The notes: generated from the sequence alone by a model not told the origin. A stretch of 64,000 nt of DNA from a virus (IMGVR_UViG_3300030372_001589:6524-70523), one strand, 5' to 3'; shown: positions 332-12,235, numbered from the stretch's first letter. Made by a program: numbers and translations.

Positions 332-356
332 TTGGAATAACGAGGGGTTGAAGACT

Positions 357-1595
357 ATGAGCATTAGTGTCATGGCTACAAGGAATGATGATTTCACTAT
401 TCTAAAAAGCGATGAATTAATGATTGGGGGATATGCGAGCATTGAAATCGTTGACAAACAAAATGATTTAATCACATTAAATGCACTAAATACCGCAGTT
501 AAAAAGTTTATGGATGATAAAAAATTCAGAAATGTAATGACAAATCATTCTAATGTTCAAGTTGGAGAAGTAGTTGACTCTTATCGAGATAAAAACGGTA
601 AATTATGGAAATCAGAAGTTGATGATGTAGGATTTTTTGTAGTTATTAAATTAAGAGATGATATAGAAAAAGCCAAAGAAGTTGGGAGAGGTATTCGCAA
701 AGGAACATTAAGGTCTTTTAGCATAGGTGGACAAGCATTACAGAAAGTAAAGAAAAGCCACGATGAATTAGGAGAATATAACGAAATAAGTAAGTTAGAA
801 CTTCATGAAGTAACAATATGTGAAAAAGGCATTAATCCCGAAGCGAAATTTGACATTCTGAAACAAGATATTGGAGATGAAAAAATGAGTGATAAACTTG
901 AGAAAGCACTAAATGAATTAGATACTCTTCTAAAAGAAGTTGAGAGTCTAAAGGGCGATGAAGAGGAATCTATGGATTCTAATTCAGATATGAAAGAAAA
1001 TGCAGAATACATGGAAATGACTGATGATGCTGATGAAAAAGAAGCGGCAGACATGGAAATGACTGATGATGCTGATGAAGAAGAAGAAATGATGCACCCA
1101 GCATACAAAGATGGTGCAGAAAAAGCATATCTTCGTACTCTTGATGGTGCAGGTAATCAAATTGGAGAACCAGCAGACCGTATTGTAATTAACAACGGAA
1201 AGCCTACTTCAACCGATATGCCGGTTGTAAAAGCATTCGGCAACAATGAGTTTGATACACTAAACCTATCAAATGCAAACATTGAGAAAGCGTATGAAGC
1301 ATTCCGTCAAGAAAAACTTGAGGAATTAGCATACGATAACCTTCGTAAATCTTTTGAAGGCCGATTTGAAACTGAAATCTCAAGTCGTGAAAATGTTCTA
1401 GCAAAGGCTAGTTATGATGCACAGGCTGAAATTGCTTCTATTAAAGAAGAATTTAGCGAACTAAGAAAATCTCTTACTGCTGAAAAAGAAACAATTCTAA
1501 AGGCACAAGAAGATTCAGTAATTAAAATGCCAAGCATTGATGATATTGCATCAATGGATTGGAGCGATATTCACAAAATGGTGAACAATATTTGA
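357..1595 (+). CDS. HK97-type prohead serine protease fused to an acidic/coiled-coil scaffold-like C-terminal region
   Basis: GYASIEIVDKQND, NHSNVQVG (His), LRSFSIGG (Ser), LHEVTICEKGINPEAKF motifs; directly upstream of MCP; ATG 357 follows GAGGGG SD. Confidence 0.9.
   Translation: MSISVMATRNDDFTILKSDELMIGGYASIEIVDKQNDLITLNALNTAVKKFMDDKKFRNVMTNHSNVQVGEVVDSYRDKNGKLWKSEVDDVGFFVVIKLRDDIEKAKEVGRGIRKGTLRSFSIGGQALQKVKKSHDELGEYNEISKLELHEVTICEKGINPEAKFDILKQDIGDEKMSDKLEKALNELDTLLKEVESLKGDEEESMDSNSDMKENAEYMEMTDDADEKEAADMEMTDDADEEEEMMHPAYKDGAEKAYLRTLDGAGNQIGEPADRIVINNGKPTSTDMPVVKAFGNNEFDTLNLSNANIEKAYEAFRQEKLEELAYDNLRKSFEGRFETEISSRENVLAKASYDAQAEIASIKEEFSELRKSLTAEKETILKAQEDSVIKMPSIDDIASMDWSDIHKMVNNI
1009..1079 (+). 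repeat. 29-bp direct repeat, 42-bp period (MEMTDDADE x2)
   Basis: acatggaaatgactgatgatgctgatgaa at 1009-1037 and 1051-1079. Confidence 0.95.
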
Positions 1596-1604
1596 GGTGA
1601 TTAA

Positions 1605-2939
1605 ATGACAGGATATATTAACACAATAGCAGATTTAGAAGCACAAACATATGGAATGAACCTACCAGCCGGTAATGCACTATTAAAGCAAGCAGGTATG
1701 GTTGGTGGAATACACACAGGACATGACGGTTCTCCGTCATTTAGCGGTTCAGCCGTTTCTGATGTATCAGCACTATACAATGTAGTTTACGGACAAAAGG
1801 TTTGGTCTATGCTAAACCGTGAAGTTAACGCATTGTCTATGATTTCAAAGCGACCATACACTTCAAGTGGATGGAGAGTATTAAAGAGCAGACCTTCGGG
1901 TGGTAGCGGTAATCTATTTACTGTTGATAAAGCAGATGTTTCCCTAACATTGGGAGAATTGGGTTCAGATACTCCAAGAGCAGATTCTATCGGTGGTGTT
2001 CCTGAAAATGCAGGTCTTTCAACCGCACAAGATGGATTGGGGCCAATTGCACCTACTTATGCTCAATTGAACATGAGTCCAAAAGTCGTTGCTCATCAAT
2101 TTGATTTCAGCGAATTGGCTATGGAAATGGCTCAAATTGACGATGGTATCGGAGATATTAGAGCGCAAATGCGTGAAGACATGGGTAAACACCATGCAGA
2201 AGTACAAAACAAGATGCTTGTTATGCCACTACAATTTTATGGTGAAGCAACACTATTGCCTAACATTGGTAACAATTATACTTCTTTGCTAAAGGTAGTT
2301 ACTTCAAAGGCTGAATTAGACCTATTGGATGCACAATCTTCTCTAATGACAGATGGTGCTACTGCAACAAATGTAAGTCACATTTACGGTACAAACCGTG
2401 ATAGTGCTTCATTCCTTGATTCAGAAGTGGATGCGGGTACTTCTTATGCAGCAACAGATGTTAGGTCACTAACTCTAACTTTGCTAAATAACATGGTTCG
2501 CAACCTAAGACTTGCTGGTGGTTCACCAAAGGTTATTCTAACCGGATATGATACCATTCAAGCACTTGCAGACCTATTGCAAAGCCAAGAAAGATTCATG
2601 GATAGAAAAGAAATTGTACCAACAGTTAACGGTGTTCGTGGAACAAAGGGTCAAGAAGTCGGATTTAGAGTAGCAACATACTACGACATTCCGCTAATTC
2701 CTGTAAAGGACATGACTACTACCGGACTTGCTTCAACAAAACTATCCGACCTATTATTCCTTGACACTGACCATCTATGGTTGTCTGTCATGAAACCAAC
2801 TCAATACTTTGAGGATGGTATCGCTAATGGAAACCCATTTGGTGTAGGAACACTAGGAAACCGTGCATTGTACCGTACTATCGGTGAAGTCGGTTGTTCG
2901 TTCTTTAAGGGTCAAGGTAAAATAACCAACATACAGTGA
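1605..2939 (+). CDS. Major capsid protein (HK97 fold, halovirus/magrovirus type)
   Basis: 444 aa, follows protease; PKVVAHQFDFSELA, LRLAGGSPKVILTGYDT, YYDIPLIP and LLFLDTDHL segments are typical of archaeal HK97-like MCPs; GAGGTGA SD. Confidence 0.9.
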   Translation: MTGYINTIADLEAQTYGMNLPAGNALLKQAGMVGGIHTGHDGSPSFSGSAVSDVSALYNVVYGQKVWSMLNREVNALSMISKRPYTSSGWRVLKSRPSGGSGNLFTVDKADVSLTLGELGSDTPRADSIGGVPENAGLSTAQDGLGPIAPTYAQLNMSPKVVAHQFDFSELAMEMAQIDDGIGDIRAQMREDMGKHHAEVQNKMLVMPLQFYGEATLLPNIGNNYTSLLKVVTSKAELDLLDAQSSLMTDGATATNVSHIYGTNRDSASFLDSEVDAGTSYAATDVRSLTLTLLNNMVRNLRLAGGSPKVILTGYDTIQALADLLQSQERFMDRKEIVPTVNGVRGTKGQEVGFRVATYYDIPLIPVKDMTTTGLASTKLSDLLFLDTDHLWLSVMKPTQYFEDGIANGNPFGVGTLGNRALYRTIGEVGCSFFKGQGKITNIQ

Positions 2940-3956: not shown

Positions 3957-3960
3957 TTTC

Positions 3961-3980
3961 ACCGACATATTAAATAGTCA
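3961..3980 (+). promoter_or_regulatory. Putative late promoter (ACCG-N-TATTAAATAGTCA)
   Basis: Second copy of the 311-331 motif, in the 3957-4015 gap, followed by a 6-bp hairpin (TCAGCG/CGCTGA, 3978-3996). Confidence 0.55.
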
Positions 3981-4015
3981 GCGTCATTGTCGCTGATACA
4001 GAAGAGGTGTGAAGT

Positions 4016-4315
4016 ATGAGTTATTCATGCAGGTCAAGCGGAGTTTTAGGTGCTAGTAAAGTAATCGTGACAGGGAGAACAAAATTAGTTAGCATTCATG
4101 CGGCTCTTTTTGTTACCGGCGGTGATGCAGTGACAATTAATGTATATGATGGTACGGATAATTCGGGTACTAAAATAGCCATGATTTCTCATTCAACCAA
4201 CGGTTATTACAACCTAGAATATGACATGCACGGAGTTTTGTGCAATACAGGTCTATATCTAGAGGTGGCAGAAGCCGGTTCATCCACCGTTAATGTTTCT
4301 ATCGAATTTAATTGA
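4016..4315 (+). CDS. Small beta-rich putative virion protein
   Basis: 99 aa, GAGGTG SD; alternating beta-strand pattern. Confidence 0.6.
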   Translation: MSYSCRSSGVLGASKVIVTGRTKLVSIHAALFVTGGDAVTINVYDGTDNSGTKIAMISHSTNGYYNLEYDMHGVLCNTGLYLEVAEAGSSTVNVSIEFN

Positions 4316-4324
4316 GGTGATTAT

Positions 4325-4714
4325 ATGGCGGCACTAAATCAAGATACAAGGTTAATTATGACTATTTTATTTGTTGGTACTGTTAGCGGTGCTAATGTAT
4401 ATTTTTATGCTAATTACGGAGTATCGTTCCCTTATACTACTTTATCCCATGCTGTATTATTTGGATTAATTACAGTCGGAGGAATTATGTGTTTAAAGGC
4501 TATCTTTGATTTATCATTAAATGATAAAATTGAGATAAGACTTTTAGATAGGCGCATTAATGCTTATTGGGAAAGAAGGGCTAGGGATGAGCAACAAAGA
4601 CAAAAACTCACAGAAACTATGAAACAGTATAATACTGTTACAATCGCACCAAGCACCCCAATGTATGAGTCAGAAAATACAATATCAAATGATTTCTTGG
4701 CTAAATTACAATGA
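4325..4714 (+). CDS. Membrane protein with two predicted TM helices and a charged coiled-coil tail (holin-like topology)
   Basis: Hydrophobic LIMTILFVGTVSGANVYFYA and AVLFGLITVGGIMCLKAIF, then RRARDEQQRQKL. Confidence 0.7.
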   Translation: MAALNQDTRLIMTILFVGTVSGANVYFYANYGVSFPYTTLSHAVLFGLITVGGIMCLKAIFDLSLNDKIEIRLLDRRINAYWERRARDEQQRQKLTETMKQYNTVTIAPSTPMYESENTISNDFLAKLQ

Positions 4715-4723
4715 GGTGTTTAG

Positions 4724-4942
4724 GTGGTTTTTGACTCCATAATGGGTTTTACTGAAACTGATTATGTCTATAATCAAAGTCGGGCGCATTCAGCCGACAT
4801 GTTTTTTACTAAAATGAGATATATTTTTTGGGGATTCTGTTCCTCATTATCTTGTTTTTTTATAGGGAACATATTAGGTGTGTTTGATATTAACATTATG
4901 GGTTGGATTATGGATAATTTGTGGCATTCATGGGAGATATAA
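4724..4942 (+). CDS. Small membrane protein
   Basis: 72 aa, GTG start after GAGGTG; hydrophobic YIFWGFCSSLSCFFIGNILGVF. Confidence 0.65.
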   Translation: MVFDSIMGFTETDYVYNQSRAHSADMFFTKMRYIFWGFCSSLSCFFIGNILGVFDINIMGWIMDNLWHSWEI

Positions 4943-4943
4943 T

Positions 4944-5606
4944 ATGTCAATGATTGCTGGTTTTGCGGTTGTAGTGACCGAAGCCTGTATATCTTTTTGG
5001 AAAAAAGTTCACGCTATTAATTTTGGAGTATATGGGGCGACAATGGTAGGAAAAACAACATTAAGTCACCAATTAAGAACAAGGGGAGAAGTACCGCAAA
5101 TTAATGAAAGAACGGTTGGATTACATAGACCTACAAGAAAAAGCATTAAATTACATGGTGATATGCACACTATTAGAAGTTCAGATATAGGGGGAGAAGC
5201 GATATATTGGAAAGAATGGGTTAAAGACATGAAATCTCGTAAACCTAAATATGTGATATTTATGATAGACCATAGACATTTAGATAGTGCGGCCAATTTA
5301 GACCATCAAGTAGCGTGGAAATTTTTAGTCGATATAATTACTAGTGATAGATGGCCTAATGGAAAAAGAAAAAAAGAAAAAGATTATCCTTTAGCAATAT
5401 CAATATGGGCTAATAAATATGATATTTGGGGAGAAAAACACAAATCTGAAAATCCAATAGATAAGCACCCAATCTTTGAACCTTTCAAATATGGTATGAG
5501 AAAATTAAATGATAAGGGAATACCTACTTTCAAATATATTGTATCTGCAAAATCTCAACCCGAAATGGTGTATAAAGGAATCACTACGATGATAAAAGAT
5601 TATTGA
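4944..5606 (+). CDS. Small Ras-superfamily GTPase, Arf/Sar1-like
   Basis: G1 GATMVGKT, G2 RTVG, G3 DIGGE, G4 ANKYD and G5 SAK all present with correct spacing; hydrophobic N-terminal helix; ATG 4944 (GGGAG SD) preferred over 4878. Confidence 0.9.
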   Translation: MSMIAGFAVVVTEACISFWKKVHAINFGVYGATMVGKTTLSHQLRTRGEVPQINERTVGLHRPTRKSIKLHGDMHTIRSSDIGGEAIYWKEWVKDMKSRKPKYVIFMIDHRHLDSAANLDHQVAWKFLVDIITSDRWPNGKRKKEKDYPLAISIWANKYDIWGEKHKSENPIDKHPIFEPFKYGMRKLNDKGIPTFKYIVSAKSQPEMVYKGITTMIKDY

Positions 5607-5615
5607 GGAATAAAT

Positions 5616-6296
5616 ATGGCATACCAACAACCAAACTTAATTGGAACTAATGCTCCAATAACAACAAATCCAACAAACCCAAATCAATTGAATACATATT
5701 CTTGGAATAAATTTTTACCTAAAACACAACAGTTTAGGGCGGCTGGAAATATAATAGAATATACATATGATAGTATTAAGCCTAAAAAGAAACTAAAAGA
5801 AATTAAAAAGGTATTATTGCCGGAGAAGAAATCATTCTTAAAACTAAAATACGGGCATAAATTTAATTTTAAAGACATTTGTGTAGTTTGTGGAACACAT
5901 CATGTATGGGAATCGGGAGATTTTTTACGGCCACCAATCCCATTAGATAAAGTTACTAAAGGCCGACCATTAAGAGGCACTTACTGTCCTAAACATGCAG
6001 GTATTCATAAGCAAATGGAAATGTTACAGCAACAGATTTTAGCCGAAGAAAATGGTTTAGATTTCAAAGCATTCATTCCTAAAATGCGAACCCCTCAACT
6101 TATGAAAAGAGGGCCACTTACTACACTATCAAAAGAAGAAGTCGCTAGTCTTGCTTCAACCGGATGGGTTATAAAGCCACCCGTTGTGACAGATAATGAA
6201 ACGGCTATGGCTGAAATAGTTAGATTAGTAGCCGAAATAGGATTATCAACAGAAAGATTGAATTATTTACTAGGTAATGAAAAGAAGGAGGAATAA
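5616..6296 (+). CDS. Zn-finger protein (CxxC...CxxH) with C-terminal helix
   Basis: CVVCGTHH and YCPKHA; GAGG SD. Confidence 0.7.
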   Translation: MAYQQPNLIGTNAPITTNPTNPNQLNTYSWNKFLPKTQQFRAAGNIIEYTYDSIKPKKKLKEIKKVLLPEKKSFLKLKYGHKFNFKDICVVCGTHHVWESGDFLRPPIPLDKVTKGRPLRGTYCPKHAGIHKQMEMLQQQILAEENGLDFKAFIPKMRTPQLMKRGPLTTLSKEEVASLASTGWVIKPPVVTDNETAMAEIVRLVAEIGLSTERLNYLLGNEKKEE

Positions 6297-6298
6297 TT

Positions 6299-6952
6299 AT
6301 GGGTTTATTTGGAACAAGTAACGGGGCAGTAATGGGTGCGGTAAATGCACAGACAGACCAGCAATTCAAAAATGTTAGCAATTTACTTTCATTACAAGAA
6401 AATCATGTCGAAGAGTTTTTTCAGTATCACGGACAGCAATTTTTTTCAGCATTAGAACAATTAATGGAAGATGTAGTAGCAAGGTCAGTTAGTCAGATGT
6501 TAACACAATTAGTATTTGTTCAAGATTCAACAACAGGGACTATGAAACTACAATCTGGTTCTTTGGCAGAATTTGAAAGAATTACAAAAGAAAACATTGA
6601 TTTGGATTTAACAAGACTACTAGATTCAGCAATCAACACTGAAATAATTAATCAAAGAAAAATGGCAAAACAACAATACCTAGAATCTCAAGGCTTCTCC
6701 ACACCAACAGGACAGGTTACTGCTGGTGCGGCTATTGCTGGTGTTACAGGTAATATGCAACAATACAATCAAATGAATGGTGCTATGAATAACGGTTCGG
6801 GCTATCCTGTTCCTCCAAATGGAACAGACGGATATGGCCGACCATATTGGATTGATGCACAGGGCCAAATGTCATATGAACCGCCACAAGCAGGTTTAGG
6901 ATTAGGTTCAGCAATACAAAAAGGTGCGGCTTGGGCTAAATGGTTAATGTGA
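6299..6952 (+). CDS. Helical protein with Gln/Gly/Pro-rich C-terminal region and amphipathic termini
   Basis: 217 aa, GGAGG SD; ends LGSAIQKGAAWAKWLM. Confidence 0.7.
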   Translation: MGLFGTSNGAVMGAVNAQTDQQFKNVSNLLSLQENHVEEFFQYHGQQFFSALEQLMEDVVARSVSQMLTQLVFVQDSTTGTMKLQSGSLAEFERITKENIDLDLTRLLDSAINTEIINQRKMAKQQYLESQGFSTPTGQVTAGAAIAGVTGNMQQYNQMNGAMNNGSGYPVPPNGTDGYGRPYWIDAQGQMSYEPPQAGLGLGSAIQKGAAWAKWLM

Positions 6953-6963
6953 GTTGATTCACA

Positions 6964-8775
6964 ATGGATATTATTTACAGTGGTGCAGGTGGTAGGTCTG
7001 TTGATTGGACTACCAAATACGCCACAAGCGAAATGAAGAAATTCATTTTTGGCAGTAAATATTTAGAAACTAGAAAAAAAGATTATAATAATATTGATGA
7101 TTATATCGAAGGTGTTCCTAAAATAAACGATACTTTAGATAAGGAAGAGTTTGACGGAATTAATAAGTCTGCAATTGACAAAATTAAAAGCACTAAGATT
7201 AAAGAAATGAATGTTGATTTTAAAGATGTTTATTTTTTAGATTTAATAGGAAATTATACCATAGAAATTTTAAACACTGATAGGGTGTTAGATGAAATTA
7301 CAGGTGAAACAAGCCGTGTTGATTTTGATAAAATAAGAATGGGTTGGCAAGGTAAATCAGATGATTATTATAACAATTTGTGGAAAAGCGGGAAAATATC
7401 TGAAAAAACACAAAAAAATAAAGAGATAAAAACTATTATTCTAAAAGAATCTGATTTAAATTCAGTTATTCCAAATGTAGGCAAACCTAAAACTAAAATA
7501 GAAAAACTTAATAGTTTAGGTTTTGAGTATATTTATGGTGATAAAATTAATACAACAATAAATTTAAAAGATAAACCTTTAGGAAAAGAAGGAAAAACAA
7601 GAAGTTCTAGAGGAAAAAGGTTCGGACTAAAAGGAAAGAAAGTTATTTCTGAAGATTTAATGCAATCTTATGATAAGTTTTACAATAAAGTAAAGTTAGA
7701 TAAAGAAGGTAATGCAAAAGAAGTCTTTGATACTCCTTATGTTTTCACAAGAAGTTTATATTTTGCAGAAGAGATGAAAGAGTCTTTAGAAAATAAAGTA
7801 TCTAATACTAAAGAATTAATTAATGACACTAAAGAGTTAATTAGCGATTTAAAATCTGTTTCTTCAGAAGAAGATAAAGAACGCCAGCAAAAAAAATTAG
7901 AGGACTCAACTAAATTATTTAAAAGTTTAAACGAATCGTTAGAAAGAGCAAAAAAATATTTGGTAATGACAGCAGGTTTAAGAAAGGAAATAGAAACCCA
8001 AATGAAAACTTTCAATGAAACTGATGATTTGTTAGATTCAGTTAGAGATAAAATAAACAATGCTGAACAGTTAACAGATAAGGAATTAGATTCAATTAGC
8101 AACATAGGTGAATTAAAAAGAATGAGAGGTAAACAAAAAGTAAAGATTAACTTCAAAGAAGAATACCTCAAATTTACTGATAAAGAGGCTATGCCTGATG
8201 ATGATTATTTGTTAGAACTCTTTGATGAATTAACCGATACTTACGATAATATGTTTAGAAAAAGAATAGTTGAGTGGTTGGAAAAATATGAACAATTAGG
8301 TATTAAACTCAATAAAGAATTTGAAAAAAAATTAGGTATAGGAGAACTACCTAAAACAAGACTAACTTCTAAAGAGGAACGAGAAGCGTTTAATAATCCT
8401 AAATTATTTATTAAAAACGAAAAAGATGTTATTCGGGCTTTGAATGATTTAAAAGTATTATACGAAATAAGACTACAAGTTTCAAAAATTACAAAGAAAA
8501 AGAAAGATAAAGAGGTAATTACCTACGCAGTTAACGAATTTAAGTTAATTTTAAAAGAAGAATTAATTCCTCCTATTGTTCCTAAAGGAACAGGTGGTGG
8601 TTCTCAACAAGCCCCATTCAGACAAAGAGGCGCAACAAAAAGAGCAGGGCCGCAAAAGGCGAGCGAAAGGCGTTTAGCAATAGGCGGTAAAGAACCTTAT
8701 CAAGTTAAAGGTGATATTACTTTATTTGCCAAAAGAATTAATAAAAAATTAAAAGAATTGGAGTTAGTGATATAA
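6964..8775 (+). CDS. Large Lys/Glu-rich hypothetical protein with coiled-coil segments
   Basis: 603-aa uninterrupted ORF; TAATG overlap with the next gene; no family recognised. Confidence 0.75.
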   Translation: MDIIYSGAGGRSVDWTTKYATSEMKKFIFGSKYLETRKKDYNNIDDYIEGVPKINDTLDKEEFDGINKSAIDKIKSTKIKEMNVDFKDVYFLDLIGNYTIEILNTDRVLDEITGETSRVDFDKIRMGWQGKSDDYYNNLWKSGKISEKTQKNKEIKTIILKESDLNSVIPNVGKPKTKIEKLNSLGFEYIYGDKINTTINLKDKPLGKEGKTRSSRGKRFGLKGKKVISEDLMQSYDKFYNKVKLDKEGNAKEVFDTPYVFTRSLYFAEEMKESLENKVSNTKELINDTKELISDLKSVSSEEDKERQQKKLEDSTKLFKSLNESLERAKKYLVMTAGLRKEIETQMKTFNETDDLLDSVRDKINNAEQLTDKELDSISNIGELKRMRGKQKVKINFKEEYLKFTDKEAMPDDDYLLELFDELTDTYDNMFRKRIVEWLEKYEQLGIKLNKEFEKKLGIGELPKTRLTSKEEREAFNNPKLFIKNEKDVIRALNDLKVLYEIRLQVSKITKKKKDKEVITYAVNEFKLILKEELIPPIVPKGTGGGSQQAPFRQRGATKRAGPQKASERRLAIGGKEPYQVKGDITLFAKRINKKLKELELVI

Positions 8776-9893
8776 TGCCGATAGCATCCTCCCCAAGCGA
8801 TTATACTGCAATTAATGTTGATTACTCAGCAGGTAATGGATTTTACACAGACAAGGGAGCAGTTTCAGATATGCTTCAAGTCCCAGCATTTTCTTCTTCC
8901 ACATTCCCTTCACAAGCACAAGTCGGTTCTATTATTAAAAACATAGAAGGTATTGTTGATGATAAAGTAAAGAGGTCATACAGACCGATTATCTATGAAA
9001 ACGAATTTCATAACTTTGAGTTTATTCGTCATCCTATGCAATCTTATTATGGTGGCTATGTTGGATTTATTCAGTTAGATACTTTGAAGGTTAAGAAGAT
9101 TATTTCTCTAAAGGTGTGGCAAGGAAACCAATATCAAGAGTTGGCATCTGCTTCTGCATCTATTACATTAGACAGTAGTGGATATAATAACCTAAGAAGC
9201 ATTACATTACAATTACCTAATAGTGGTGATTCGTGGGTATTGTATCATCATGCAGAAGGTTCTTTAGCGGCGCATAATACATTTCATAACGGCTTCGGTT
9301 CTAAAACAACTGCACAGGACATTTGCCATTTAATTAATGAAGAATTTCCTGCTAGCACTGCACAATTTACAGGTGCAACAAGAGATAAGATATTAACTTC
9401 ATCTCCTAATAACCTAAACATAAGTGATTTCTTTTATGCGAGTCCAGACCCCGATGATAGCAATAAAATAAACATTTCTAGCCTTTTAGCCGGAGAAGAT
9501 GGCTCCAATTGCACCATTACAGTCGCAGATAAAGCGGGTCAAACATCAGATACTACCACATCAGCGTTCACGGATATGCAAGATATGAAGCGTCTTGGTT
9601 CCTTTTGGTCTATTGGTGATGAAGGCCGAATATTTTTCCTTAGAGATTATCCATACCATACTCAAAATTCTATTATTGTAACTTATATTGCTGGCAGTAG
9701 CCGTGTTCCTTCTGCTATTCATAAAGCAACGACAATGTTAGTAGCGGCTGAGATATTAAGACATGACGACCAAACCATAATGATTGCTGAAACAGGTGGT
9801 AACATTGGTGCTAAAGAAAAATATGATATTTTAGTCAAAGAAGCATATGCTATATTAAAGGGTAAAGGGGATATAGTATTCCTAATTGATTAG
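8775..9893 (+). CDS. Head-tail adaptor (gp6/gp15-like) with large internal insertion
   Basis: C-terminal IVTYIAGSSRVPSAIHKATTMLVAAE matches the adaptor 'vtYxaG..vP..i..A...lva' pattern; located between head and tail genes. Confidence 0.7.
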   Translation: MPIASSPSDYTAINVDYSAGNGFYTDKGAVSDMLQVPAFSSSTFPSQAQVGSIIKNIEGIVDDKVKRSYRPIIYENEFHNFEFIRHPMQSYYGGYVGFIQLDTLKVKKIISLKVWQGNQYQELASASASITLDSSGYNNLRSITLQLPNSGDSWVLYHHAEGSLAAHNTFHNGFGSKTTAQDICHLINEEFPASTAQFTGATRDKILTSSPNNLNISDFFYASPDPDDSNKINISSLLAGEDGSNCTITVADKAGQTSDTTTSAFTDMQDMKRLGSFWSIGDEGRIFFLRDYPYHTQNSIIVTYIAGSSRVPSAIHKATTMLVAAEILRHDDQTIMIAETGGNIGAKEKYDILVKEAYAILKGKGDIVFLID

Positions 9894-10120: not shown

Positions 10121-10608
10121 TTGATTTAGTTAGCAGTAAATGGGCTAGTTCTGCCACTACTTTACAAAGTGCTGGTACTATTTCAGCCGACCATGTGGGT
10201 ACTCCTAATTTTGTTGATGTAAGAACATTACAAAAAAATAAAGGAGTTCGGTATGATTTGACCGCTAAAGATGTAATTATCTTTTTTGAAGATGGTCAGA
10301 ATATAGAATACCCTACGGTTAACTTTGATATTAGAAATGAGACTTATACTTTCACAATGCACATACGCACGATTCACGATGAAAGAGCCGGAACGGATGC
10401 TGATTTTGGAAAAGATAGGCTAAGGGCTTTATACTTGATTGCCCGTCATGCACTTGAACGGGGTCGTACAGGTTACACTGCAAGCGACGGTTCTAACTTT
10501 AATCAAATATTTGTAGGTTCTAGAAATGAAAGTAATGACCGTTCAAAAAGATTATTCGGATATAAAATGAGCATAGAAGCAAAAAGATTCGCATTAACAC
10601 TCCCTTAG
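10099..10608 (+). CDS. Putative tail completion/terminator protein
   Basis: 169 aa directly before the tail tube gene; alpha/beta pattern (YTFTMHIRT...GYKMSIEA). Confidence 0.55.
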   Translation: MDEVSLLIDLVSSKWASSATTLQSAGTISADHVGTPNFVDVRTLQKNKGVRYDLTAKDVIIFFEDGQNIEYPTVNFDIRNETYTFTMHIRTIHDERAGTDADFGKDRLRALYLIARHALERGRTGYTASDGSNFNQIFVGSRNESNDRSKRLFGYKMSIEAKRFALTLP

Positions 10609-10639
10609 TAAGTTTGTAAAAGGAAAGGAGAGATTAAGT

Positions 10640-12235
10640 ATGGCAGTAGAAAACAGTAGTATATTTTTAGGTAGCGGCGCATCAATGACTTTTGTTCCAG
10701 AAGTGGACTTTTATTTTAAGGCACAAGGAGCGAGTACAACGCAAATTCAAATTGAAACAACCAATGCGGTTCAATTTCAATTAGTGGATAATATGTATGT
10801 AGGTTGTACTATTGATTTTTATAATGCTTCTGATAGTGGAAATTATACTTCTTCTCACACAGTTACTTCTAACGACCACGATACTTTTACTATAACTCCC
10901 GCCATTGGTGAAGCAGTAGCAAGCGGCGATGAATTTGTATTAAAAGGATATGGCGCACCCTGCCCTGCACCCGATTCAGATAATGACGGAACAGGAAGAG
11001 TAAGACTTCATGCCGACAATTGGCTTGGATTAGTTGAAACTGCGGCATTCCCTAACATTGAAGTTGAAATGAAACAATTAAATCTTTCTCTCGGTGGTAC
11101 AAGAAACTTTACTCATCAATACAAAGGTATTGAAACTTCATCTGGCGGTAACTTGGCTTTGATGTGTAATCATGTAACTTGGCTTTATTACGCATTAGGT
11201 TTATGCACTGAATTAAGTGTTGCTAATGCAGTTACTTCTGAACACCCTGCATCTTATCATGTAGGTACTCATGGAGGTATGTATTTTCATGGCACTTCCG
11301 CTACTTCTCATGTTGATGAGGGGCCGTTTATTTATCGAGCAAACAGTGTAAGTGGAACAACTCACTTGGTTCCTCCTTTGTTATTTACTGTTGATGATAC
11401 GGTAGGCGACTTAGATGCTATCCCTACTTCTAATGGAGATATAGTAGCATCCGGTGGACTAATAACATATAAGTTTGCAGAATCTAATACTGCTCATTTA
11501 CCTTCTTTTGCACTTGAATATTCTCTAAGTAAATTAGCAGGTGCGGCATCGGCGCACTATACAACTGATACTGATAGCGATGCAGAAGACTTAAACTTCG
11601 TTAGGGTAGCAAGAGGAAATAGAGTAAATACTCTAACAATGACCGCTAATGAAAATGAAGAATTAAAAATGACTATGGACTTGAATACAAGAGCCGTTTC
11701 AGAAATCCCGCAAGGCACTAATTATGACTCTAGAGGCGGATTAACTTCTGCTCAAAACTCAAGTCTATTTAATTTCACATCAGTAGCAAACCACTTAGAA
11801 CCGTTCTTCTTTTCAGATGGCTCAATAAGCATATTTGGAAATACATTCTTAAAGATTACTAACTTTACACTGACTATTAACAATAACTTACAAGATAAGA
11901 GATTTGTCGGTGTTGGTAATAAGTCCATTAAAGAAGGTATTCCAGCGCAAAGAACATATGAACTTGCTATTACTGCTATGGTTACTGACGACACATTATT
12001 TACTGAATTGTTAAACCAAACAGAAAACACAGGTAGCACTGAGAAAATAGCCTTAACATTTACTAAAGACAACACTGCGGAAGAAACCTTCACTTTAGAA
12101 TTTGAAGATTATTTCCTATCATCTAACACATGGACTGTTCCTGACGATAAAGGGCCAATTACAGTGGAAGCAACATTAATGCCAAGAACACTAGGTACTT
12201 GTACCACTTCAACTCATTGGGTATTGCAGGGGTGA
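10640..12235 (+). CDS. Major tail tube protein (long, with extra domains)
   Basis: C-terminal ITNFTLTINNNLQ...RTYELAITAMVTDD...FTLEFEDY...GPITVEATL is a tail-tube pattern; strong GGAAAGGAG SD; precedes TAC and TMP. Confidence 0.75.
   Translation: MAVENSSIFLGSGASMTFVPEVDFYFKAQGASTTQIQIETTNAVQFQLVDNMYVGCTIDFYNASDSGNYTSSHTVTSNDHDTFTITPAIGEAVASGDEFVLKGYGAPCPAPDSDNDGTGRVRLHADNWLGLVETAAFPNIEVEMKQLNLSLGGTRNFTHQYKGIETSSGGNLALMCNHVTWLYYALGLCTELSVANAVTSEHPASYHVGTHGGMYFHGTSATSHVDEGPFIYRANSVSGTTHLVPPLLFTVDDTVGDLDAIPTSNGDIVASGGLITYKFAESNTAHLPSFALEYSLSKLAGAASAHYTTDTDSDAEDLNFVRVARGNRVNTLTMTANENEELKMTMDLNTRAVSEIPQGTNYDSRGGLTSAQNSSLFNFTSVANHLEPFFFSDGSISIFGNTFLKITNFTLTINNNLQDKRFVGVGNKSIKEGIPAQRTYELAITAMVTDDTLFTELLNQTENTGSTEKIALTFTKDNTAEETFTLEFEDYFLSSNTWTVPDDKGPITVEATLMPRTLGTCTTSTHWVLQG

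Follow-up and report, generated by a model that had tools for sequence, protein, structure and literature searches.

How tailed viruses of archaea leave their hosts is a process whose players a recent review describes as completely uncharacterised (PMC10791045), and the question is raised by five small genes that lie between the capsid and tail-tube genes of one such virus. The window analysed here is a stretch of 64 kb (IMGVR_UViG_3300030372_001589:6524-70523) out of a 70.5-kb IMG/VR virus record that is 76% complete, and the five genes occupy its positions 4325–6952 (hereafter, the cassette; Table 1). An earlier interpretation made without database searches (the sequence-only reading) had taken them for a GTPase-switched lysis, egress, or membrane-anchored assembly system of a magrovirus. 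The assignment to magroviruses was borne out, because a hypothetical protein of Poseidoniales virus YSH_150918 shares 76% identity with the GTPase. We found that the cassette is a conserved, movable functional module within the late region of archaeal tailed viruses (magroviruses), and that its central gene, as judged from family profiles and a predicted structure, encodes a very divergent small GTPase of the Arf/Sar type.

Conservation and Mobility of the Cassette

The five open reading frames (ORFs), referred to as genes 1–5 in their order, encode a protein with two transmembrane (TM) segments and a charged tail, a single-TM protein, the GTPase, a Cys/His protein, and a Gln-rich protein. They are separated by intergenic gaps of 9, 1, 9, and 2 nt, and each is preceded, 5–8 nt upstream, by a Shine-Dalgarno (SD)-like box (GAGGTG, GGGAG, GAGGA, or GGAGGA); coordinates, gaps, and boxes agree with the tight packing and SD sites that had been described for 4325–6952. 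Purifying selection acts on all five genes, including the 72-aa ORF, with ratios of nonsynonymous to synonymous substitutions (dN/dS) of 0.05–0.24 against 11 relatives, in comparisons in which dS was often saturated; the ranges were 0.06–0.19 for gene 1, 0.10–0.20 for gene 2, and 0.12–0.18 for gene 5. The five ORFs are real genes, their conservation lying far beyond that of chance ORFs. Family scans revealed no product that resembles a capsid or tail part, in keeping with what had been said of them.

Close relatives of the GTPase are carried by 264 IMG/VR contigs (clade 1). In the 80 loci examined, the cassette was co-linear without exception, each locus that reaches the position of a gene carrying that gene: gene 1 was present in all 77 loci that cover its position, and gene 2 was carried by 78 of the 80. 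A second clade, seeded with P0133 (a 39% identical GTPase), comprises 127 viral contigs, and the same order of 2-TM, 1-TM, GTPase, Cys/His, and Gln-rich proteins was observed in approximately 68 of 80 loci examined, a gene 4 homologue lying directly downstream of the GTPase gene in 76 of the 80. The clade-2 proteins measure 170–220 aa (2-TM, with a coiled-coil tail), 78–100 aa (1-TM), 292–348 aa (Cys/His), and 190–227 aa (Gln-rich), with an extra 2-TM protein of about 80 aa. Profile–profile comparison of the two clades matched the GTPases (E 8e-37), the Cys/His proteins (hhalign 96.4%, E 1e-9), and the Gln-rich proteins (hhalign 69%, E 4.4e-5 over 87 columns), with no cross-matches; the match between the gene 1 profiles was weak but co-linear (E 0.07 over 71 columns), and the gene 2 profiles of the two clades had no sequence match. 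In a third lineage (L081), the GTPase is 41% identical and the order is the same with an acidic protein inserted. This insert, located between the 1-TM and GTPase genes (L081:7229-7999), is a strongly acidic protein of 256 aa with a run of about 26 Asp, and the L081 cassette is also flanked by genes for four more small membrane proteins (5904-6518, 10229-10552, 10556-10975, and 10957-11274). GTPase identity between lineages is 31–41%, and the three lineages together amount to approximately 390 viral contigs. The synteny check across magroviruses that the sequence-only reading had called for therefore gave co-conservation of the five genes, in 80/80 close loci and with the same layout in two further lineages.

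The place of the module in the genome is not fixed. In the window it is found downstream of the capsid gene and upstream of that for the tail tube, whereas in the complete 118-kb genome G001, in which the GTPase gene (15.8 kb), TerL (24.4 kb), the major capsid protein (MCP) gene (39.1 kb), and the tail-tube gene (45.9 kb) are all on one strand, it is upstream of the terminase gene and about 21 kb from that for the MCP. In the clade-2 locus L124, the gene for a 2203-aa protein and an AT-rich gap lie upstream of it, and genes for a helix-turn-helix (HTH) protein and packaging lie downstream; in L081, it follows glycosyltransferase genes. A head-tail connector was rejected because of the distance from the MCP gene in G001, and the changes of position relative to capsid and tail genes indicate that the module does not consist of head-tail joining proteins. 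The idea that a packed late operon merely brings the five genes together, without joint function, was already disfavoured and seems extremely improbable: tight packing is common throughout the window genome, and variable genes do insert between the 1-TM and GTPase genes and between the GTPase and Cys/His genes of relatives, but the five-part layout is kept while the genomic position changes, at the GTPase identities given above. Within the cassette, the GTPase is the most conserved product, with 76–86% identity where that of the MCP drops to 64%.

A Divergent Small GTPase of Predicted Arf/Sar Type

The GTPase contains the G boxes G1 (GATMVGKTT), G3 (DIGGE), G4 (NKYD), and G5 (SAK), and a candidate G2 (RT56). 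Among 61 clade-1 sequences, GATMVGKTT, DIGGE, and SAKS are invariant or nearly so; of the G4 residues, the Tyr varies, with N, K, and D conserved. In an alignment of 19 divergent family members (A1), G1 and G3 are retained, with G31, G36, K37, D81, and G84 invariant, and most full-length members also have G4 (NKxD) and G5; W92, 11 residues after the G3 Asp, is nearly invariant, at what we take to be the site of the conserved Trp in Arf and Sar. A hydrophobic peak is located at the N-terminus (residues 1–19), where the model predicts a helix (residues 2–22), and such an N-terminal hydrophobic helix is present in all 19 members of A1.

As a single sequence, the window GTPase had no Arf match in Pfam or NCBIfam and nothing meaningful in a PDB sequence search, and it stayed below every Pfam GTPase threshold (best MMR_HSR1, E 0.033). 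The A1 profile, however, matched the Asgard protein GerdArfR1 (8oun; E 4.9e-10), Arl3 (5e-10), and Sar1 (3e-7), as well as Arl1 and Arf1, the matches to the family spanning E 5e-10 to 1e-6, and the Pfam Arf family (PF00025) was matched by 8 of the 19 members, with a best E of 1.9e-15. Because only the profile and the relatives match Arf, membership was assigned via the family and not via the single sequence. The AlphaFold model (predicted local distance difference test (pLDDT) 83.8, predicted template modelling score (pTM) 0.80) had Arl3, Arf6, and Arl2 as top Foldseek matches (E 6e-10 to 1e-8), and VIA-align gave Z 16.5–18.3 and a root-mean-square deviation of 2.2–2.6 Å over about 160 residues in its best-fitting rows. 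Almost all of the top 50 VIA-align matches were Arf, Arl, Sar1, ArfR, or G-alpha structures, the closest being GTP-bound Arl1, Arf6, Arf1, Arl3, and Sar1, together with ArfR and G-alpha, and the alignments to membrane-bound full-length Arf1 (9c59 and 2ksq; model ranges 8–220 and 7–220) span the N-terminal helix. That the central gene encodes a GTPase, as had been noticed, was thus confirmed, and fold and family profile place it in the Arf/Sar type.

Compared with the Arf family (Arf1/Arf6/Arl1/Arl3/Sar1, and Asgard ArfR, 8oun/8oum/8ouk), the viral protein shares the fold, the G1/G3/G4/G5 boxes, and a helix before strand 1. It differs in being only about 15–20% identical, in insertions after switch I and before G4, in having a Glu in clade 1 for the catalytic Gln of Arf or His of Sar1, in its hydrophobic helix that lacks a Gly2 myristoylation context, and in being encoded by a prokaryotic virus. 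P0121 and most other distant members of the family have DxGGQ. The DIGGE of clade 1 suggests altered or partner-dependent GTP hydrolysis.

Only 75 clusters related to the viral GTPase were found in an exhaustive search of 1.84 billion cluster representatives; there was no match in the GenBank phage collection, nor one for P0132 in IMG/VR, and fused (longer) forms were sought and not found, although this negative carries little weight. Its closest viral structures in BFVD are small GTPases of giant viruses (E 9e-9 and weaker); the top 50 matches are all from giant viruses of eukaryotes, with none from bacterial or archaeal viruses. Giant eukaryotic viruses such as Mimiviridae and pithoviruses likewise encode small GTPases, but those are of Rab/Ras/Ran types taken from eukaryotic hosts.

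Membrane Proteins Encoded by Genes 1 and 2

The hydropathy peaks of gene 1 lie at residues 10–28 (1.55) and 43–61 (2.16), and its tail of 59 residues contains 10 K+R and 8 D+E (18 charged residues). The same architecture is found at the same position in L081 and clade 2, and the protein had no match in Pfam, PHROGs, and further family scans. A PADLOC search of the cassette gave no meaningful match; its single one, BrxA on the charged tail of gene 1 (E 0.001), was rejected as compositional. Gene 2 shows one hydropathy peak in all three lineages, and its only family match, holin_4 (E 0.037, 14.5 bits against a cut-off of 70), was not significant. Hydropathy peaks, together with the conserved G boxes, bear out the description of the first three products as proteins with two and one TM segments and a GTPase.

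The build of gene 1, as far as architecture goes, appears holin-like (class II-like topology). Phage holin cassettes resemble the one described here in their small 1- to 2-TM proteins, the charged cytoplasmic tail, and their location among late genes; unlike them, it has no significant holin-family similarity and includes no endolysin or spanin. We know of no lysis-cassette counterpart for the three extra soluble or peripheral proteins, including the GTPase.

Putative Partners of the GTPase and Comparison with ArvABC

Gene 4 encodes a soluble protein with a polybasic stretch (KPKKKLKEIKKVLLPEKK) and a putative CCCH metal site (C89, C92, C124, and H127) that includes a conserved GR-x2-RGTYCP-x-H. 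The CxxC/CxxH protein of the sequence-only reading is recognisable here, C89-x2-C92 and C124-x2-H127 being conserved; in the alignment A4, C89 is invariant and C124, H127, P125, and R117 (a nearly invariant Arg) are almost so. In clade 2, CVVDGC replaces CVVCG, and L081 has lost the site. The family comprises 462 relatives, none with a Pfam domain and all on contigs of ≤185 kb, and no PDB or Pfam relative was detected (profile search; Pfam at E ≤ 1). No match at E ≤ 1 was obtained to ArfGAP (PF01412), the spacing being C-x2-C-x31-C-x2-H in gene 4 and C-x2-C-x16-C-x2-C, accompanied by an arginine finger, in ArfGAP.

For gene 5, a low-confidence model comprises three long helices, a beta hairpin, and a disordered Q/N-rich linker; no fold is claimed because the pLDDT is 50. 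The protein ends in an amphipathic helix (GSAIQKGAAWAKWLM, residues 204–216; hydrophobic moment 0.34) that is invariant in clade 1, so that the last gene had been rightly called helical, with the amphipathic part located at its C-terminus. No family or PDB relative was found in Pfam, PHROGs, and a profile search, and the ESM Atlas neighbours of genes 4 and 5 were at chance level only (≤0.84). A WW-like GRPYWID...SYEPP in the stretch GYGRPYWIDAQGQMSYEPP (6806-6868, residues ~170–190) is almost invariant in clade 1 and lacking in the clade-2 and L081 homologues. It resembles what we take to be the core of the WW domain (GRxYYxN...TxxTxWxxP), for which gene 5 had no Pfam match at E ≤ 1. A role as GTPase-activating protein (GAP) or guanine nucleotide exchange factor (GEF) for gene 4, and as a coat for gene 5, is speculation. 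Taken together, at least four of the five cassette products have predicted membrane-binding elements, based on hydropathy and hydrophobic moment.

In archaea, the GTPase ArvA and its Zn-ribbon partner ArvC drive vesicle budding (PMC10927574). ArvA-ArvB-ArvC (OapABC) resembles the cassette in combining, in one operon, an Arf-like GTPase that has an N-terminal membrane helix with a Zn-binding proposed regulator (PMC10927574), and, acting on the archaeal cytoplasmic membrane, is its closest working archaeal analogue. The two differ in that the cassette has the order GTPase, Zn protein, and Q-rich protein, with two TM proteins added, and in that ArvABC is cellular and largely vertically inherited, whereas the viral family is confined to contigs of ≤185 kb. 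The Pfam models of OapC/ArvC (PF09845) and ArvB (DUF2073) matched no cassette protein at E ≤ 1 (gene 4 included) and none of clade 2, including its gene 4 homologue, at E ≤ 0.01, and PF09845 had no match in the viral record. With only 75 related clusters found, the viral GTPase is probably not closely related to ArvA (HVO_3014). By the OapC and ArvB models, the cassette is not a member of the ArvABC system.

Variable Genes and Distant Relatives

Among clade-1 relatives, 33 distinct, mostly unrelated small proteins (62–201 aa) begin with M-W-x-x-(I/V/L)-L-K (MWxxILK; examples in Table 1). Of 38 such ORFs, 29 lie at the junctions that flank the GTPase gene, 9 between the 1-TM and GTPase genes and 20 between the GTPase and Cys/His genes, and every insert comes with a second copy of the upstream junction sequence. 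Their synonymous codons vary, and therefore it is the peptide itself that is conserved. One possibility is a targeting signal for variable accessory proteins, comparable to the one that directs T4 internal proteins to the capsid; another is a boundary for cassette exchange.

A very distant relative of the GTPase, P0178 (239 aa; 32% identity, E 2e-5), is located in long contigs of cellular type. It is paired with a 248-aa protein (L167:6001-7474 and L168:5777-7250) that is unrelated to gene 4, and is surrounded by genes for Trypsin_2, Trypco1, DUF499, DUF927, and SSB, a defence-island-like neighbourhood.

This neighbourhood, and the variable accessory genes inserted beside the GTPase gene in viral relatives, would fit a conflict module, i.e., one that serves superinfection exclusion, or counters or mimics a membrane defence of the host, and is dispensable for the virus's own particle cycle. 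We consider such a role very unlikely. An accessory conflict gene would not usually be present in about 390 contigs of three lineages and be better conserved than the capsid protein, PADLOC returned no meaningful matches, and the partner of P0178 is not related to the Cys/His protein.

Possible Function in Late Infection

The anatomy of the cassette, i.e., two integral membrane proteins, the predicted helix of the GTPase, an amphipathic helix, and a putatively metal-binding, polybasic partner, points to an assembly that sits on the cytoplasmic face of the host membrane and is switched by GTP, and we tentatively favour a late-acting membrane or egress role. In such a mechanism, the two small TM proteins would sit in the cytoplasmic membrane of the host, and the hydrophobic N-terminal helix would hold or switch the GTPase onto it, as in Arf, Sar1, SR-beta, and archaeal ArvA. 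The GTP form could then engage the Cys/His protein and the Gln-rich protein, the latter adding its own C-terminal amphipathic helix to the bilayer, and all together might deform or breach the membrane late in infection. The 2-TM protein with its charged tail would be the holin-like part and the GTPase the switch or timer, and the most likely purpose would be timed release of virions from a host without a murein wall.

Late membrane breaching or egress was ranked first because the egress of archaeal tailed viruses is uncharacterised and because the tape measure is the only TM-rich product elsewhere among the late genes, a hydropathy scan of the window having shown otherwise only a few tiny or nested TM ORFs. 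No lysis gene or endolysin was recognised among 20 late-region proteins in family scans or in the hydropathy scan of the window; the statement that the window lacks a lysis gene holds to that extent. The host is not expected to have murein. The lysis cassette of P2 lies between head and tail genes and that of T7 between tail fibre and terminase genes, and we take the positions of the present cassette to resemble these.

Several observations weigh against an egress role. No wall- or S-layer-degrading enzyme is adjacent to the cassette. The TM proteins showed no significant similarity to holin or pyramid proteins in general scans, which included no comparison aimed at PVAP, and between clades only position and architecture speak for their homology. 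The N-terminal helix of the GTPase is hydrophobic and not clearly amphipathic (moment 0.30, mean hydrophobicity 0.45), and therefore may be a fixed anchor rather than a switch, as in SR-beta; clade-1 GTPases, including that of the window, have a Glu (E85 of DIGGE, 5196-5198) and not the catalytic Gln. The language-model neighbours of gene 5 include the ejection proteins P22 gp7 and T7 gp14, at chance level (0.79–0.80). Finally, the module is always located among virion genes, a setting that suits a role in the virion or in assembly just as well.

The last two points bear on an alternative that seems unlikely, namely that the products are packaged virion-internal or ejection proteins that open or line a channel in the membrane of a new host, the GTPase acting on arrival, in parallel to gp7/gp20/gp16 of P22 or gp14–16 of T7. 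The module always lies among same-strand morphogenesis genes, and gene 5 shares with ejection proteins a Q/N/G-rich, partly disordered sequence, with the P22_gp7 and T7_gp14 clusters nearest, although at a chance-level score. In relatives, variable MWxxILK genes are concentrated at the two junctions on either side of the GTPase gene, a pattern that recalls the T4 internal proteins with their capsid-targeting sequence. However, a tape measure with TM segments, which normally fills this role in long-tailed viruses, is present, and the module shifts relative to capsid and tail genes. To our knowledge, no GTPase occurs in any tailed-virus particle, and a nucleotide switch would be hard to use inside a capsid.

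Membrane-tethered assembly, or remodelling for purposes other than egress, draws on the same membrane and GTPase evidence as the egress role; the cassette could anchor assembly or packaging, form vesicles, or alter the division or envelope of the host. ArvA-type GTPases form vesicles and do not lyse cells, and the clade-2 module is directly upstream of the HTH protein and packaging genes. Nothing ties the module to capsid or terminase proteins, however, its position differs between lineages, and we know of no tailed viruses that assemble at membranes; overall, we regard this possibility as quite unlikely. The egress role can also be put in a stronger form, in which the cassette would be a self-contained GTP-switched machine for membrane breaching or budding with its own TM receptors, metal-binding regulator, and amphipathic effector. 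We consider this form rather doubtful. If it were true, the MWxxILK-tagged variable proteins could be cargo or clients of the cassette machinery.

Late-Region Setting and Upstream Spacer

The plus-strand block from position 1 to about 27 kb of the window is the tailed-virus late region, the features of which are collected in Table 1.

Table 1. Coordinates of the cassette and of other features of the window, followed by MWxxILK ORFs of relatives.
Feature	Position	Strand	Remark
Prohead protease	348-1595	+	
HK97-type MCP	1605-2939	+	phrog_24667
Four small genes	between MCP gene and cassette	+	
Intergenic spacer, 59 nt	3957..4015	+	possible promoter or RNA element heading the cassette-containing transcription unit
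A/T-rich TATA-like box, CATATTAAATAG	3966-3977	+	
Hairpin TCAGCG-7 nt-CGCTGA	3978-3996		found on minus strand by terminator scan
99-aa beta-rich protein	4016..4315	+	first gene after spacer; no TM segment
Five-gene cassette	4325-6952	+	
Gene 1, 129-aa membrane protein	4325..4714	+	two hydrophobic segments; C-terminal tail helical and highly charged
Gene 2, 72-aa single-pass membrane protein	4724..4942	+	GTG start; TM ~38-56, Trp-rich C-terminal stretch
Gene 3, 220-aa small GTPase from ATG	4944..5606	+	longer GTG form from 4878 in ORF list
Gene 4, 226-aa soluble Cys/His protein	5616..6296	+	disordered N-terminus, helical C-terminal part
Gene 5, 217-aa Gln/Asn/Gly-rich protein	6299..6952	+	
603-aa coiled-coil protein, variable	6964-8775	+	directly 3' of cassette
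372-aa protein	between 603-aa protein and tail-tube genes	+	
Tail-tube protein	10640-12235	+	
Tail chaperone, then tape measure	downstream of tail tube	+	
MWxxILK ORFs	L007:8669-9031; L012:7706-7999; L014:703-1254; L017:7718-8323		none in window
MWxxILK ORFs	L020:4438-4788, 5466-5786; L056:7157-7450, 7474-7995, 8669-9235		none in window

The sequence-only reading had placed a dedicated late promoter at 3961. A TTAAATAG/TTAATAG box and a short, GC-rich hairpin are kept at the same spot of the spacer in relatives, and the hairpin stems differ yet stay self-complementary, as in the window (TCAGCG/CGCTGA), L062 (GGTGGAG/CTCCAC), L063 (GGCAGG/CCTGCC), and L044 (GGAGG/CCTCC). Box and hairpin are a possible conserved promoter or RNA element that opens the transcription unit. 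With RNAalifold, register shifts between the aligned stems left the hairpin without a consensus, and a sigma-70 promoter and terminator scan was at background, with a model that is not relevant to an archaeal host. The 18-mer motif at 3961 occurs once in the window with no repeat elsewhere, and its 11-mer core is not enriched there (5 found against 6.5 expected). The proposed element is therefore conserved in its box and hairpin, but it lies one gene upstream of the cassette and its motif is not repeated, so that the dedicated late promoter stood only in part.

The intervening gene encodes the 99-aa protein, which has a weak match only (phrog_28102, E 8e-4). It is found upstream of the cassette in clade-1 loci with 36–95% identity and has no counterpart upstream of the clade-2 cassette, where there is instead an AT-rich gap of its own after the giant gene. 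Because it accompanies the cassette in clade 1 only, this gene is not part of the deeply conserved module.

Downstream of the cassette, the 603-aa protein is Lys/Glu-rich and hypervariable, although its neighbours are conserved. It was matched only in the nine closest loci (L001–L009, minus loci that end before it), at 25–59% identity, and has weak tape-measure-like PHROG matches (E ~0.1).

Implications for Magroviruses and Their Hosts

In the surface ocean, magroviruses rank with the most abundant viruses; their hosts, the abundant marine group II archaea, are uncultured. No mention of a GTPase in magroviruses or of this cassette was found in the searchable literature. A conserved, virus-restricted GTPase of predicted Arf/Sar type, together with small TM proteins, provides concrete candidate genes for the egress of archaeal tailed viruses. 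Arf-type GTPases, which act in eukaryotic trafficking and were recently described in Asgard archaea and haloarchaeal vesiculation, would thereby be extended to viruses of prokaryotes, a result that bears on the origin and spread of GTPase-driven membrane remodelling. Should the stronger form of the egress role be true, archaeal tailed viruses would have in the cassette their first identified egress system, and viruses of prokaryotes would have in its GTPase the first Arf-type membrane switch of their own.

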